Source: a virus (taxonomy: Duplodnaviria > Caudoviricetes). Taken from it: a stretch of DNA of 63,981 nt. Below, piece by piece: positions 17,191 to 43,654 of this stretch. Both the position numbers and the translations under genes were made by a program. Every line of letters begins with the position of its first letter. Position 1 is the stretch's first letter. Under the pieces are notes generated by a model. That model saw only the letters and a program-made list of their open reading frames with translations. It had not been told where the DNA came from and made no database searches. The stretch is from positions 1 through 63,981 of the IMG/VR virus record IMGVR_UViG_3300014933_000403; one strand, given 5' to 3'.

Positions 17191-17309
17191 TGACCGGTAC
17201 ACAACATAACACAAAACCGCGAATGAGAATATCTGGCAGGCGATCTCCCAAAGCTGCCTTTTTTCCTGTTCTTTTTGCATGACATTAGATTTAAGGTTGG
17301 TTAATAATG

Positions 17310-17630
17310 TTATTCGTAAACGACATCCATCTCAGCTTTCATCTGTTGGATGATCCTCACCACTCCCCACCTGGTCTTACCCAAATGTTCAGCGATAAGC
17401 CTGGCAGAAAGCTTGCCTTCGGTCCGGAAATAATTCTCCCGAACAAATTGACGGTCTTCCTCACTCCACTCACGGGAGTATTCCTTCCTCCAGCCTTCCT
17501 TACGAGCCATGTTCCAAATCTGATCCTTAGTGATCCCGAACTGGGATACTAAATGTTTGATGTCGGTGTCAGGGAAGAGCAGAGACAACTCGGTCTTCTG
17601 CTCTGGTGATAAAATAGGTGTGTTTGCCAT
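17310..17630 (-). CDS. HTH/Myb-like repeat protein
   Basis: LSPEQKTEL and WSEEDRQFVRENY...IAEHLGKTRWGV. Confidence 0.65.
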   Translation of the reverse strand: MANTPILSPEQKTELSLLFPDTDIKHLVSQFGITKDQIWNMARKEGWRKEYSREWSEEDRQFVRENYFRTEGKLSARLIAEHLGKTRWGVVRIIQQMKAEMDVVYE

Positions 17631-17658
17631 AGATTAAATTTAATGAGGTTTGTTAATA

Positions 17659-17811
17659 TTACCACCACTTGGTTTTGCAAGAGGAGGCAATGCAGGCTCT
17701 CTGACCTTTGTTGATTTTGGAATAATTCCTCTCAGTAGCACAGGAAGAAAGGAAAGCAATCACGATGATGAGTCCAATCACTAGGATTGTGAAGTCTGGT
17801 GTTTTTTTCAT
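17659..17811 (-). CDS. Small lipoprotein
   Basis: MKK, hydrophobic core and lipobox LSSC; two further Cys. Confidence 0.65.
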   Translation of the reverse strand: MKKTPDFTILVIGLIIVIAFLSSCATERNYSKINKGQRACIASSCKTKWW

Positions 17812-17828
17812 GTTGGTTGTTTGTTTGG

Positions 17829-18098
17829 TTAATAATAAACGATGCGTAAGTAGCTGCAATCTTTCCGGTTCATAGCTTTCTGAATCTGTTCTAACTCAGC
17901 CACAACCTCTTCGCCAGGATGCTTGCAGTTAGCCATGGAAATGTTCTCGAGCATTCTAGCTACTGAATAGATATGCTCATGGGTGTCTTCATCATTATCA
18001 GTCCACACTTCTTTCTGTGTTCCGATAAGACATACTGTCTCTGCGGTAATTTGGCTAACATGGATGTCAGCGATTCTCAGGATGTTGTCTAGTTTCAT
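17829..18098 (-). CDS. Hypothetical early protein
   Basis: In the tandem minus-strand operon; directly downstream of hammerhead 1. Confidence 0.65.
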   Translation of the reverse strand: MKLDNILRIADIHVSQITAETVCLIGTQKEVWTDNDEDTHEHIYSVARMLENISMANCKHPGEEVVAELEQIQKAMNRKDCSYLRIVYY

Positions 18099-18111
18099 TT
18101 TAAATAATATT

Positions 18112-18163
18112 GGTTAAGACCCTCCGAAGAGGGTTTCGCATATTCAATGCTCGTCAGTTAACC
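18112..18163 (-). ncRNA. Type I hammerhead ribozyme (HH1)
   Basis: Minus strand reads GGUUAA CUGACGA GCAU-UGAAU-AUGC GAAA CCCUC-UUCG-GAGGG UC UUAACC: full core, three stems, GUC site. Confidence 0.93.
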
Positions 18164-18367
18164 TAATTCAGCAACGGTTTCGTTTATTAATTCAATGACA
18201 ATATTGCATGTCCTATAGTCATTATGAATAAAGAACACCTTCTTAGTATCCCTGCATACAATAGCAACTGTTTTACCTTCTGCATCGTCATCATCTGACT
18301 CCCATAAATCTATATGGGTGTAATTTTGGTCATCGGTGTAATCGTTTCTTACTTCGAAAGTTTCCAT
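18158..18367 (-). CDS. Hypothetical acidic early protein
   Basis: 69 aa; its TAA stop forms part of HH1 stem I. Confidence 0.65.
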   Translation of the reverse strand: METFEVRNDYTDDQNYTHIDLWESDDDDAEGKTVAIVCRDTKKVFFIHNDYRTCNIVIELINETVAELG

Positions 18368-18378
18368 GGTTCGTAGTG

Positions 18379-18684
18379 TTATTGGTTAATAATTGGTTGT
18401 GAGGTTTGTTTATCCCGTGTGTAGGCTGAGATGGTTTCGTATACGCGATTCTCGCAGCCTTGGGGGAGGGTAATTGTGGCAATCCCATTAGAAAAAGAAG
18501 GTTTTACCTTTTCCAGGATCGTATCACCCAATTCTTTTTTAAGGTGGGTGATGAAAATTGCCTGAGCGAATGCCGGATATTTTCCATGATCATTGAGAAC
18601 AATGTGCATGAGAGTCGGTCGGGTGGGGACAACAACCAATGGCTGCTGATCCCAGAATGCGTTGGTGTGGGTGGATGGTTTCAT
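18379..18684 (-). CDS. Hypothetical early protein
   Basis: Operon position; ATGA coupling. Confidence 0.6.
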   Translation of the reverse strand: MKPSTHTNAFWDQQPLVVVPTRPTLMHIVLNDHGKYPAFAQAIFITHLKKELGDTILEKVKPSFSNGIATITLPQGCENRVYETISAYTRDKQTSQPIINQ

Positions 18685-18929
18685 TTGCTAAAGGATTGTG
18701 CAGCGTTAGATAATAAGAGTCCTAAAGCCTCTGCCTGTTCTTTGGTATCACAGTCAGCAACACACAGAACATATTCAGATGACTTACGCAAGTAAACACT
18801 CCAATAAGAATGCTGACCTTCGGCACACATTTCAACGTTGCCTTTGCCGTCATCAAATACAGGGCAGATTTCAACATTATCCCATTGGCGATTAGCGGGT
18901 TGGGGATAGAAATTAAGGTTTGTTTTCAT
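18681..18929 (-). CDS. Hypothetical early protein
   Basis: C...WSVY.R....CVAD.DT..QA pattern; operon position. Confidence 0.65.
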   Translation of the reverse strand: MKTNLNFYPQPANRQWDNVEICPVFDDGKGNVEMCAEGQHSYWSVYLRKSSEYVLCVADCDTKEQAEALGLLLSNAAQSFSK

Positions 18930-18935
18930 GGTTGG

Positions 18936-19121
18936 TTATGGGTTTATAGTTCCGTTAGCAATAAGGTCTTGGGCAGTTCTTCCAAACCAACCTTGCAGTT
19001 GGTAGGCAAGACCCGTGTCATGTAAATACTGCCATGCCTCTGTCTGTAATTCCTCAGATGCATCTTCTCCCGGGCCGAATCCTTCGGCAATGGAGGTAGC
19101 TAAGTAGGGTGTCATTATCAT
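18936..19121 (-). CDS. Conserved-looking small phage protein
   Basis: AWQYLHDTGLAYQLQGWFGRTAQDLI; start refined to follow the structured intergenic element. Confidence 0.7.
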   Translation of the reverse strand: MIMTPYLATSIAEGFGPGEDASEELQTEAWQYLHDTGLAYQLQGWFGRTAQDLIANGTINP

Positions 19122-19124
19122 GTT

Positions 19125-19195
19125 GGTTAATTTTTTTACCGACAATGCCCCGAACCATTTACGATTCGAGGCTGCCAGGCTACAAGGTGTTAACC
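19125..19195 (-). ncRNA. Candidate structured intergenic RNA of unknown class
   Basis: Closed by the same GGUUAA/UUAACC helix as both hammerheads; inner CUGGCA/UGUCGG helix and an 11-bp GCCUCGAAUCG/UGGUUCGGGGC hairpin. Confidence 0.5.
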
Positions 19196-19906
19196 TCACC
19201 TTATCACAAATCCGGTCATATCTTTCTTAGCATCTCCCTTGGCTTTTAAGCCTACCACAACACCTGATGGGTCATAATACCTCAAATCGGTCTCATCGCC
19301 ATTAATTACAGGGAATCCGTTCCAACTAGCAGGAAGTTCATTAAAGACAGCAGCAACATTCCCGCCTACCTTCAATATCTCCAGTGCATCAGCCTCATTA
19401 ACCTCAGAACGGGAGAAGGTAAGCTTGTATGGGGTGTTAAGGTATCTGCGGATATGGTTGGGGTTCTTGGTGTAATCGTAGAACAGGATGTTACGAACAT
19501 ATGGCTGACTCAAGAAATCGTTCCCTGTCTTCCTTTTAAGGATGGCAAGATGGTCAATATCAGATGTGCCATTAAGCCTGATGGCAACCATGGTGTTGGT
19601 CTTCTGTGCATGACGGTGAATAGCTTGTATTTCGATAGCCAACTGAAAGTAGAATTGCTCAATATCTTCAATCCAAAAAAGAGATTTGTTGATCCTGGAC
19701 AACTGCACATTGGAGAAACGACCTCTGCCTGCCGTATACAGACATGACTTGCGGCAGCCTTCAGAAGAGTATGGGCAGAGGTTAAAGCCTCTCAGAGCGG
19801 TCTCTGCCGGTGCCATGTACAGGATAAACGTTTCTAGAGCATTCTTAGCGGTCTTAACATTGGTAGAACCTTTGGAAAGAAGGTTTTTTACAGGTTTGTG
19901 TTGCAT
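19196..19906 (-). CDS. GP88-like Cys-cluster phage protein
   Basis: NLCPYSSEGCRKSCLYTAGRG, IRLNGTSDI, FYDYTK, LTFSRSE, GDETDLR, VGLKAKG; start refined to MQHKP. Confidence 0.7.
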   Translation of the reverse strand: MQHKPVKNLLSKGSTNVKTAKNALETFILYMAPAETALRGFNLCPYSSEGCRKSCLYTAGRGRFSNVQLSRINKSLFWIEDIEQFYFQLAIEIQAIHRHAQKTNTMVAIRLNGTSDIDHLAILKRKTGNDFLSQPYVRNILFYDYTKNPNHIRRYLNTPYKLTFSRSEVNEADALEILKVGGNVAAVFNELPASWNGFPVINGDETDLRYYDPSGVVVGLKAKGDAKKDMTGFVIR

Positions 19907-19921
19907 GGTAGTAGTTTTTAT

Positions 19922-19993
19922 GGTTAAGACGGGACAGAATCCTAGGGGGAGGATGTCTGCCCGTTTCGCGGATTCACCGCTCATCAGTTAACC
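19922..19993 (-). ncRNA. Type I hammerhead ribozyme (HH2)
   Basis: Minus strand reads GGUUAA CUGAUGA GCGG-UGAAU-CCGC GAAA CGGGCAGA...UCUGUCCCG UC UUAACC. Confidence 0.93.
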
Positions 19994-20592
19994 TAGAGCA
20001 TATTCATTGCTAGTTCATAGATATCAAGGTCATTCTCTTCACAGTAATCGAATGCAGCAGCCATACGCTTATTGTAGATGGCAGCCTGTTCAGCAGAATA
20101 CAAGGTTTCATTGTTTCTCACATCTATGTACTGAGTGAAATCGGTATCAGGATGGAAGCCCAAGCCTATGTAGTCAATACACTCTCTGAGGAAAGCAACA
20201 ACCTCAGCCTGTAGTGTATACTTGGCAAGCATATCAGCCTCCTCAGTATCATAAGCCTCTACAGAGTCATAAGACACCCAACAGAAACAATAACCTTGCA
20301 GAGAGTAGAAGGTCTCACCATTGAATTCTACAGAGTAGCATTCCTCATCTGTGGCAATACCATTGGCGTATGACCTGTTATAAAATTTGTTGGTGTCTGC
20401 ATTGTACACGATGGTGTCCGCATCATAGTCAGCTACCTCTTCATTCGATAGCATCTCAGTCACTACCTTCAGACTGTTCTCATGGTTGAAGTAGGGGACA
20501 TCCCAACCATTCCATAGGTCACCAAATGTGATACCTGCAATAGGTTGTCTGAAATGGTCTAGTGCGAAGAATTTAAGTGTGGGTGTGTTCAT
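19993..20592 (-). CDS. Hypothetical acidic early protein, probably two domains
   Basis: WNGWDVPYF N-terminal domain and GLGFHPDTDF..Y...DIYELA C-terminal domain. Confidence 0.7.
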   Translation of the reverse strand: MNTPTLKFFALDHFRQPIAGITFGDLWNGWDVPYFNHENSLKVVTEMLSNEEVADYDADTIVYNADTNKFYNRSYANGIATDEECYSVEFNGETFYSLQGYCFCWVSYDSVEAYDTEEADMLAKYTLQAEVVAFLRECIDYIGLGFHPDTDFTQYIDVRNNETLYSAEQAAIYNKRMAAAFDYCEENDLDIYELAMNML

Positions 20593-21908: not shown

Positions 21909-21935
21909 AAAAAAGCCCCCGTAAAGGAGGTCTTT
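21909..21935 (-). terminator. Intrinsic terminator
   Basis: Minus-strand GC hairpin followed by TTTTTT, downstream of the 21954 gene. Confidence 0.55.
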
Positions 21936-24746: not shown

Positions 24747-24816
24747 GGGGAGGTAACTCAGGGGCAGAGTAGCAGCTTAGGCTTGTTAGTCGGTGGTTCG
24801 AATCCACCCCTCTCCA
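24747..24816 (+). tRNA. Atypical tRNA with a UAG (Leu) anticodon and an alanine-type acceptor stem
   Basis: GGGGAGG/CCTCTCC-A acceptor, ACTC/GAGT D-stem, CT-TAG-GC loop, GGTGG-TTCGAAT-CCACC T-arm; 70 nt, short variable loop, no encoded CCA. Confidence 0.75.
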
Positions 24817-24817
24817 C

Positions 24818-43200: not shown

Positions 43201-43654
43201 AACACCAATCTCTGAATTCGATACCAAATATTGGGTTAACCATCCAGATGAAGCACCTCCCGGTGGTGAAAGTTTTAACCAGTTCAAAGGAAGGGTGCAG
43301 TCGGCCAGAGATGAGATATCGGGTTTGAATAAAGAAACTGCTGTGGTTACCCACGGTAAGGTTCTTAAAATGATGGACGCTCTTGATCATAACAATGGGG
43401 AGTGGAATGAGAAAGCAAAGGCTGAGTTTTTGAAGGATAAAGATTTTGAGAATGCCACCCCGTACAAGGATGGGAAGAAATTCTCGCCAGAAAAAGTTGA
43501 GGTAGAGAAAACCATCGATGATAAGATTCAGGAGAAGCATGGCCGCACACCAGAAGAAATTATTAAACAAATGAAGGAAGAAGGTTCTCTTAAAATCAAA
43601 TGCCCTCCAGGATCAAAAAGAAAAATGCCACTCAGAGAAATCGTTAAATCATGA
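40262..43654 (+). CDS. Large ejection/polyvalent protein with a C-terminal histidine phosphatase domain
   Basis: G/A-rich hydrophobic central helices; IRHGET...SPMTRAQETA...LAEWNTG...GGES...VVTHG. Confidence 0.8.
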   Translation: MTDPQTQIDEVTLDKPIAGTKFKPVGDVPEGMFDNKMSDQDFAELLKKQKPKTVGEAAVIGMSQYMLDQKKNYQGIKNNEQVSNRMIAQSADKLNKVNTQQVPIEDDKAAKDLAKRQAEFERDLYADYSIPEDQRHEGSIVKMPKGMRSDYVDHLGMKNPAWTREYVQLRKDPDTGKLSWQGYNKPSVIRGESDITMFSTRFKDEGFTEQVDDKTGLKSKVPTKEVQAFWDKQATDKDYSEEATRATNLLRNMEASGNYRVSKMMASNPELWKNFKAETGFLTGQDLNEGGAMQAADNAIMKTFEMDTPLSKVAPHYAPWAIMDAIDKHNQFAEYTDKYNQDQDNISAKLRLAGEPSLYQKMPEAFDRLHEIEAQMMRDPKSVSPADQKQYNAIKLELTKHTLETMKDSPLSAAFKMKAAEYKVKNDQHLKDIELLGTPDGQAALSLLSKQAKGYEMSQRLPDYFPGMKQAEKEQKAIDEKGDYFSSIKTFLRGVRNSTESIRSGIMRDIGFTEDQIGKEISGEKKSELDLRTPIRAGNTAWEKLANFSDGLGEMAGGLAPVMAMTMAVGGGSISGTIPFILREGVPFFLQGQNDYYREARANGLDNVTAHLKGILGGSALVLSQSILPKGKLLDHGVINKEIEEVIKKGVVDKSALESFYSKFISSGIHATGAGAAITTANGMADWAMNSYINMQKGTKLPADQLEPGKISESALMFGVMGSIMNGVSSFGDKSAARSMVLKMAEDHPLTTLRAIDDAITISKTDASYNETALQRMKKDVSEAIQMSYPESFTKEQRIATFDLIKKKEELQQEQSTVGSEFKGSFEQKIKAIDDKIKEVADKPESAQKHLDEVSDPLYKKLESEGYFDVPSKKEEKKAEDQSKKEAAVAKSESAPVLIRHGETDSNKLGLTGAADDPLNEKGKVQAEKLGEELAASGIKNVVTSPMTRAQETAEAIVGKTGGEVVTNDKLAEWNTGADKTPISEFDTKYWVNHPDEAPPGGESFNQFKGRVQSARDEISGLNKETAVVTHGKVLKMMDALDHNNGEWNEKAKAEFLKDKDFENATPYKDGKKFSPEKVEVEKTIDDKIQEKHGRTPEEIIKQMKEEGSLKIKCPPGSKRKMPLREIVKS

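Follow-up and report, generated by a model that had tools for sequence, protein, structure and literature searches.

The question raised by this locus was whether a self-cleaving RNA lies between two small phage genes and, if so, what it does there. The window that was analysed is the whole stretch of 63,981 nt that makes up positions 1 to 63,981 of the IMG/VR virus record IMGVR_UViG_3300014933_000403. The record is that of a tailed dsDNA phage; it is linear, is estimated to be 89 % complete and encodes a DnaB-like helicase, a DNA methyltransferase, a sliding-clamp-like factor, virion proteins and a large terminase. A minimal hammerhead ribozyme of 52 nt, with the stop codon of the preceding gene inside its stem I, had been predicted on the minus strand at 18163..18112. 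This element (HH1) and a second copy (HH2) both sit within a block of small minus-strand genes, which has the replication module on one side and the structural module on the other.

Inspection of HH1 bore out the hammerhead assignment. All of the features that define the type I class were present within 18163..18112, and the CUGACGA core, the 4-bp stem II with its UGAAU loop, the UUCG-capped stem III and the GUC site were each found where they had been predicted (Table 1). The C3-A9 core was accompanied by G12-A13-A14 and the A15.1-U16.1 pair, by C18118 as H17, and by three helices of which stem I is open; U18119 and C18118 form the U-H of the GUC site, and the G10.1-C11.1 pair of stem II is present as G18150-C18138. 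Hammerhead consensus places cleavage 3' of H17, and the predicted scissile bond between C18118 and U18117 agrees with the position originally proposed. The embedded stop codon was also confirmed, the UAA at 18160-18158 terminating the 69-aa ORF 18158..18367, and the same habit was seen across the family. The label "minimal" proved misleading, since A18164, A18111 and A18110 lie outside the 52 nt and are conserved in the family; the functional unit is approximately 18164..18110.

The minimum-free-energy fold of the 52 nt reproduced the three-stem layout exactly (-15.2 kcal/mol; z = -2.65), and two of 200 shuffled sequences were as stable. Stems I, II and III were all retained in the fold when approximately 50 nt of flanking sequence was added on each side. 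The ATG of the 89-aa ORF lies 13 nt past stem I, which places the start at +14 from the end of the ribozyme.

Table 1. Coordinates in the window of the two predicted ribozymes and of the features around them.
Feature	Position	Strand	Basis
HH1 whole, compact type I hammerhead including flanking A(-1) 18164, A(+1) 18111 and A(+2) 18110	18110..18164	-	sequence, fold, R2, flank conservation
HH1 stem I, 5' strand GGUUAA; UAA is the stop of the 69-aa ORF	18158..18163	-	sequence, ORF map
HH1 catalytic core strand CUGACGA (C3 to A9)	18151..18157	-	sequence; relatives invariant except N7
HH1 stem II (4 bp, GCAU/AUGC) and pentaloop UGAAU	18138..18150	-	sequence, fold
HH1 GAAA core strand	18134..18137	-	sequence, fold
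HH1 stem III: A15.1-U16.1 (A18134 opposite U18119) and five G-C-rich pairs, UUCG loop	18119..18137 (including the GAAA strand); hairpin 18120..18133	-	sequence, fold; covariation in relatives
HH1 predicted scissile bond, 3' of C18118 (H17) and 5' of U18117	18117..18118	-	hammerhead consensus
HH1 stem I, 3' strand UUAACC; predicted 5'-hydroxyl end of the downstream RNA	18112..18117	-	sequence, fold
A/U-rich leader without Shine-Dalgarno motif, to the ATG (18098-18096) of the 89-aa ORF	18096..18111	-	sequence, ORF map
HH2, type I hammerhead, predicted cut C19928/U19927	19993..19922 (19921..19994 with flanking As)	-	descriptor, sequence, R1, R2, fold
UAG terminating the 199-aa ORF, with its A as the conserved A(-1) and HH2 stem I beginning at its G	19993..19995	-	ORF map, sequence
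GP88-family gene, 236 aa	19196..19906	-	PF17338 E = 5.6e-34 (residues 10-235); phrog_1617 E = 8.2e-66
RNA segment from the predicted double cleavage, 1810 nt, with five ORFs (236, 87, 82, 101 and 69 aa)	18118..19927	-	coordinates, ORF map

HH2 was located 1.8 kb upstream of HH1 on the same strand, between a 199-aa ORF (phrog_9945) and the GP88-family gene. The two copies have stem I, with identical halves, and the UGAAU loop in common, and HH2 carries the A19994 and A19921 cap that, with this loop, belongs to the family architecture. Its stem II reads GCGG/CCGC as against GCAU/AUGC in HH1, a difference of two compensatory changes; its core, CUGAUGA at 19987-19981, has U at N7 in place of the C of HH1, and its long, bulged stem III is unrelated to that of HH1. 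When HH2 was folded with its flanks, stems II and III were kept and stem I was lost to an alternative pairing in the minimum-free-energy structure, and folding of this copy may depend on context.

The true start of the GP88-family gene is the ATG at 19906, 15 nt past HH2 (+16). A mechanically called ORF of 262 aa (19196-19984, minus strand) was rejected; its start ATG belongs to the CUGAUGA core of HH2, and the Pfam and PHROG matches begin near ATG 19906. The start of this gene is likely to be misplaced in automatic annotation.

A type I descriptor, consisting of the core words and stems of at least 4, 3 and 3 pairs, was run on the 64-kb window. It returned two sites, compared to a mean of 0.015 in 200 dinucleotide-preserving shuffles, of which three had one site and none had two. 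A blastn search of 17300-19200 against a phage collection gave no match.

Relatives were sought by pattern in viral contigs. The first scan, in which the core and a GGUUAA stem I were fixed and stems II and III were left free, matched at least 120 stretches and gave at least 154 instances, 140 of them unique among the matches listed. Eighteen of these sequences, including HH1, were of equal length and aligned without gaps; all 288 pair cells were standard, 7 of the 16 pairs had changed on both sides, and the covariation score was 0.477 compared to 0.088 in shuffles, with none of 500 shuffles as high. The covariance model R1 was built from these 18 sequences and gave, in the window and 99 loci, 150 matches among those listed. 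In the R1-derived alignment of 138 distinct sequences 98.9 % of 2153 cells were paired, compared to 75.1 % after shuffling, and none of 500 shuffles came up to the observed figure; these values have to be read bearing in mind that this alignment was fitted to the model. Both sides had changed in 12 of its 16 pairs, the A15.1-U16.1 pair was invariant in all 137 relatives scored, and G10.1-C11.1 was G-C in 137 of 138. Loop II of the 13-nt class, which comprised 112 of the 138 distinct sequences, had U (112/112), any base, A (105/112), any base and U (102/112) in order.

In the second scan the fixed elements were the core, a 4-bp stem II with a G-C closing pair, the U-N-A-N-U loop and CGAAA; no constraint was placed on stems I and III, and at least 120 stretches were again matched. 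In 103 new loci there were 125 matches listed, 120 of them with a fully paired stem II and 117 of them complete hammerheads. Among the matches listed, stem I measured exactly 6 bp in 116 of 117; an A occupied position -1 in 115 of 116 and position +1 in 116 of 116. The sequence of stem I was diverse, GGUUAA being found in only 4 of these 117. The idea of a sequence-conserved GGUUAA/UUAACC stem I was thus discarded as an artefact of the first pattern. Thirty-two members of the second scan, none of them from the window, were used to build a second model, R2; its rows had been pre-selected for pairing, so that its 100 % pairing is by construction. All six stem I pairs occurred in several Watson-Crick forms in this alignment of pre-selected rows, and support for stem I that is free of such selection comes from the 117 complete hammerheads among the 125 matches of the second scan. 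The core strand was invariant except at N7 in both the 18-sequence and the R2 alignments, and H17 in the relatives was C in 113 and A in 15 of 128 matches listed.

The search with hammerhead models, one of the checks proposed for the assignment, gave a divided answer: Rfam had no match to HH1 even at E ≤ 10, and the model R2 detected it at 69.4 bits (E = 7.7e-17; span 18165..18109). R2 also detected HH2 (38.1 bits, E = 4.7e-8), and the next match in the window scored 10.2 bits. The score of HH2 with R1 was similar (36.6 bits, E = 7.2e-8). A third, weak R1 match at 43234-43280 on the plus strand was rejected as probably due to chance; it consists of GGTTAAC and TTAACC 34 nt apart within a 1130-aa ORF and has no core.

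At the Rfam gathering score only a tRNA, and no hammerhead, was reported over the whole window; at E ≤ 10 only a chance snoRNA match was reported for 18000-18300, and neither RF00163 (type I; gathering score 34 bits) nor RF03152 matched at HH1 or HH2 when run over the whole record. Twelve related loci that contain approximately 30 copies gave no hammerhead at the gathering score. In permissive scans RF03152 scored 25.9-28.6 bits on four of the five copies of one locus (gathering score 56.3), and RF00163 gave 19.9 bits, below its cut-off, on a relative in a five-copy locus. Since the related copies were missed as well, the silence of Rfam at HH1 reflects curated models that are blind to the whole family and not a defect of the site.

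That HH1 is a chance look-alike or an inactive relic, for instance a terminator-like hairpin beside core-like words, is extremely improbable. This explanation could draw on the lack of any Rfam match and on a z-score of only -2.65 for the isolated fold; it is opposed by the 0.015 sites expected per window, by a second copy with compensatory changes, by the E-value obtained with R2, by hundreds of covarying relatives and by a terminator scan of the minus strand that had no site at HH1. HH1 and HH2 are members of a group of compact type I phage hammerheads in which stem I has 6 bp and an A/A cap, stem II has 4 bp and loop II is a U-N-A-N-U pentaloop. Judged from their sequences, both copies are very probably active self-cleaving ribozymes.

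The architecture of the family contains more than the core needs, namely an A/A cap at position 7 of stem I, set lengths of 6 bp and 4 bp for stems I and II, and the pentaloop. In the GGUUAA class A was found at -1 in 98 %, at +1 in 98 % and at +2 in 81 %, and the stem was not extended in 139 of 141 of the matches listed. Natural hammerheads cleave rapidly only when loop II makes contact with stem I, about six pairs away from the core. Because the cap and the loop are conserved without a core requirement, and because such contacts are known, we infer by analogy that the A/A cap and the U-N-A-N-U loop form a tertiary contact that would speed catalysis. Inspection of HH1 by eye for a pseudoknot between loop II and the flanks found only three possible pairs.

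The position of the ribozymes relative to genes was regular. Among the 141 unique sites listed for the GGUUAA class, 38 had the UAA of stem I as the upstream stop codon, 24 the UGA of the core and 18 a UAG formed by A(-1) and G1, and the remaining stops were mostly within 8 nt upstream; 136 were followed by an ATG, the spacer having a median of 16 nt and the start position an interquartile range of 15-19. The second scan gave a similar picture among its 128 sites listed: the stop overlapped the ribozyme or A(-1) in 92, was 1-8 nt upstream in 17 and further upstream in 17, and no ORF was found for the other two. The start codon in these matches had a median position of +21, approximately 20 nt past the ribozyme.

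HH1 and HH2 are interpreted as genuine ribozymes that are predicted to cut a polycistronic message, and that probably provide gene-by-gene punctuation in a host that does not use Shine-Dalgarno sites; both the cleavage and the fates of its products are inferred. Punctuation is the most likely function, although it is held with less confidence than ribozyme activity itself. During transcription of the block each ribozyme would fold and cut on the 3' side of its GUC. Type I topology means that nearly all of the ribozyme would stay with the upstream RNA, which would retain its stop codon and have two hairpins and a 2',3'-cyclic phosphate at its 3' end. The 5'-hydroxyl would be borne by the downstream RNA, in which six stem nucleotides and an unstructured A-rich leader of about 20 nt would precede the AUG. 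The 6-bp stem I, being A/U-rich and capped by a mismatch, would dissociate after the cut and make it effectively irreversible. On general principles of RNA decay and of initiation in Bacteroidota, the outcome would be that stability and translation of adjacent cistrons are uncoupled.

The close apposition of stop codon, ribozyme and start codon is also compatible with a translation-coupled switch, in which a ribosome that is ending the upstream ORF would cover stem I and the core and block folding, so that the cut would be made only after, or without, upstream translation; the leader, held beside stems I and III until then, would need the cut to become free for Shine-Dalgarno-independent initiation of the following gene. 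In favour of this alternative, which we regard as possible but clearly short of even, are the stops that overlap the ribozyme or A(-1) in those 92 of 128 listed members and in both copies of the window, the AUG only about 20-22 nt from the cut, so that the initiation region touches stem I, and the A-rich leaders without Shine-Dalgarno motifs. Tight gene packing alone, however, would bring any intergenic element up to a stop codon, the hammerhead core has a UGA anyway, A/U-rich stems readily contain UAA, and in 34 of the 128 members listed the stop lies upstream of the ribozyme. A more elaborate version of the punctuation reading, in which the ribozyme is a translation-enabling standard junction for hosts without Shine-Dalgarno initiation, combines a very large uncatalogued subfamily, the embedded stop, the A/A cap and pentaloop as a new minimal tertiary contact, and a cleavage-made leader (5'-hydroxyl, A-rich, about 20 nt) that the next gene needs to be initiated efficiently; as a whole it is speculative and rather unlikely.

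The genes around the ribozymes gave few functional clues. The 69-aa and 89-aa ORFs on either side of HH1 had no family match in Pfam or PHROG. The sole gene of the block with a functional hint is a 106-aa ORF downstream of the gene that follows HH1 (17310-17630, minus strand), which matched phrog_323, 'transcriptional regulator, D5-like' (E = 1.3e-7). At 24747-24817 on the plus strand, where the minus-strand block meets the plus-strand genes, lies a lone tRNA-Leu (anticodon TAG).

A terminator scan of the minus strand from approximately 21.8 to 16.5 kb returned one weak site only, inside the GP88 gene, so that HH1 and HH2 probably both lie within a single transcript. A G-C-rich hairpin with a T run after it, at 21916-21930 (minus strand), was the best terminator-like site in the block and may mark the end of a transcription unit upstream of the one that carries HH2 and HH1.

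Cleavage of one transcript at both ribozymes would release the 1810-nt segment listed in Table 1. Pairing between the 5' end of this segment and the ribozyme at its 3' end could allow religation into a circular RNA, or exchange with other cleaved RNAs. The stem I halves of HH1 and HH2 are identical, as this would require, and in type I ribozymes it is the fragment with the cyclic phosphate that keeps the catalytic body (PMC3088659). Religation is nonetheless very unlikely. Stem I was the same in only 15 of 86 within-locus pairs and the HH1-type stem I occurred in 4 of 117 members, among the matches listed, and this diversity reduced a universal stem I for trans-ligation to a minor rival. A 6-bp, A/U-rich, mismatch-capped stem favours product release, and no RtcB, RNA_ligase or AAA_33 kinase was found to be encoded in the 89 %-complete phage record. 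Circular or spliced products were sought for other clustered hammerheads and none was seen, according to Perreault et al. (PMC3088659), who give this as data not shown.

A host that lacks Shine-Dalgarno initiation is part of the punctuation reading. A Shine-Dalgarno-like word preceded only 4 of the 51 ORFs of the window, the upstream regions being A-rich and G-poor, and the leaders that follow the ribozymes in relatives were A-rich. Initiation from A-rich regions without Shine-Dalgarno sites is the style of Bacteroidota. A scan of prokaryotes with one genome per species gave only seven matches; the long contigs were from Paraflavitalea (a complete chromosome) and Niabella, both Chitinophagaceae, and one of the seven was on a Pedobacter MAG. 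The Paraflavitalea copy is a complete family member. The host is most likely Bacteroidota-like and does not use Shine-Dalgarno sites.

The ribozymes occurred in arrays of one to seven copies per locus and never on both strands, with a median spacing of 408 nt and a range of 120-1758 nt in the loci listed. Copies within a locus had the same stem I in 15 of 86 pairs, compared to 1.8 % between loci, and had a stem-loop II or a stem III in common in only 3 of 86, in each case among the matches listed. In 80 loci around GP88-family relatives (42-70 % identity; 399 kb) neither R1 nor the descriptor found a hammerhead, and in 20 of these 80 loci Rfam at the gathering score found no other ribozyme. 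As none was present in these loci, the adjacent genes evidently work without ribozymes.

This patchiness, together with positions that vary relative to shared genes in other contigs, is what would be expected of selfish or neutral passengers that spread with small accessory genes in and between phage genomes and bring no benefit to expression. The excess of shared stem I sequences within loci, as from spread inside a genome, and the small size of the flanked genes, mostly without assigned function, point the same way. Such a passenger status is nevertheless unlikely. The structure is under strong purifying selection, with near-perfect pairing and many compensatory changes, the orientation is strictly co-directional with the genes, and the fixed geometry of stop, leader and start argues for integration into gene expression; recent copying is rare, as judged from the 3 of 86 listed pairs noted above. 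Punctuation of the message remains the preferred interpretation.

Type I hammerheads in bacterial, phage and metagenomic DNA were reportedly described by de la Pena and Garcia-Robles in 2010 (cited in PMC6155905), and HH1 belongs to an already known class, the phage hammerheads, which has been recognised since 2010-2011. Hammerheads in phage and bacterial DNA, including type I examples, and their clustering near small non-conserved ORFs are in print (PMC3088659; PMC6155905; PMC13725137). The role of bacterial and phage hammerheads is still called an open question in PMC6155905. Compared to the type I bacterial and phage hammerheads of Perreault et al. 2011 (PMC3088659), HH1 has the same core, the same open-stem-I topology, a place between genes with small non-conserved ORFs as neighbours, and a persistent link to phages; the subfamily of HH1 differs in that RF00163 has no match at HH1 or HH2 and only the sub-threshold score quoted above on a relative.

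The closest precedent for punctuation is the clustered hammerheads that flank phage genes and that cleave polycistronic constructs of approximately 2 kb in vitro, as described in section 6 of PMC3088659. In the same section of that paper the prophage clusters of Clostridium scindens, Azorhizobium caulinodans and Agrobacterium tumefaciens likewise have several co-oriented copies that bracket genes or short blocks of variable identity. Processing of the polycistronic RNA into gene-length pieces was proposed there and cleavage was shown in vitro, whereas cleavage is predicted here. Unlike the prophage clusters, HH1 and HH2 are type I, have no evident pseudoknot and have another candidate contact, the A/A cap and pentaloop.

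Among Rfam families, the RAGATH-1 hammerhead RF03152 was the best sub-threshold match to the relatives, with stem I, core, GAAAC, stem III and GUC all aligned. An additional hairpin and linker upstream of stem I in RF03152 have no counterpart here; the relatives scored about half of the gathering score and the hairpin region was not aligned.

Placement just before a start codon also has parallels. The HHphage hammerhead of haloviruses HF1 and HF2 lies 13 nt before a start, with a transcript 5' end mapped near the cut, and a fusarivirid type I hammerhead lies 7 nt upstream of a start codon with RACE support. By analogy, this placement suggests that cleavage defines the 5' end of an mRNA. The likeness has limits: HHphage comes from other hosts and genome types and has a core with unusual insertions, and fungal RNA-virus hammerheads, which are found in intergenic or 5' regions, are eukaryotic and tied to cap-independent initiation.

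RiboJ is an engineered insulator, derived from a type III satellite ribozyme; its hammerhead, inserted ahead of a coding sequence, standardises the 5' end whatever the upstream context, and a hairpin was added to expose the Shine-Dalgarno site. RiboJ and HH1 are both self-cleaving elements before a coding sequence (by prediction in the case of HH1), but HH1 is natural, is type I and is followed by a leader without a Shine-Dalgarno site. In the literature searched there was no description of the A/A-capped 6-bp stem I, the pentaloop, the embedded stop, the fixed leader or the size of the family; earlier hammerhead alignments may include members.

The family is abundant in viral metagenomes, with at least 120 stretches in each of the two scans. 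Its regular layout of stop, ribozyme, A-rich leader and start gives a concrete and testable hypothesis, in which ribozyme punctuation would set the ends of mRNAs and perhaps also enable Shine-Dalgarno-independent translation. Every copy that was checked was missed by the curated Rfam models, and the annotation of phage genomes probably lacks these ribozymes; with a model of their own they would be annotated, and gene starts such as that of the false 262-aa ORF would be corrected. The A/A cap and pentaloop may constitute a very small natural tertiary contact, which would be of interest to ribozyme engineers.

Several variants were seen among the relatives. One extra base, usually U, was present after A9 and before stem II in 15 of the 150 R1 matches (for example, at loci L029 and L048). 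In approximately 15 of 140 unique members (for example, L038, L039, L040, L029 and L048) stem III resembled an intrinsic terminator, with an A/U base, a G-C-rich hairpin and a U run supplied by the 3' strand of the stem; in these members the upstream RNA might be ended by termination or by cleavage, with one element serving for both. Locus L255 had five sites of another hammerhead subclass on its minus strand, beside one A/A-capped member; stem I of this subclass is of the CCACA/UGUGG type and 5 or 6 bp long, the flanks have G or T in place of A, and the stem II loops are longer. The contig of L076, which has four of the hammerheads described here, also carries the Rfam DUF805b RNA motif (RF02914, 38.9 bits) at 250-282 on the minus strand.
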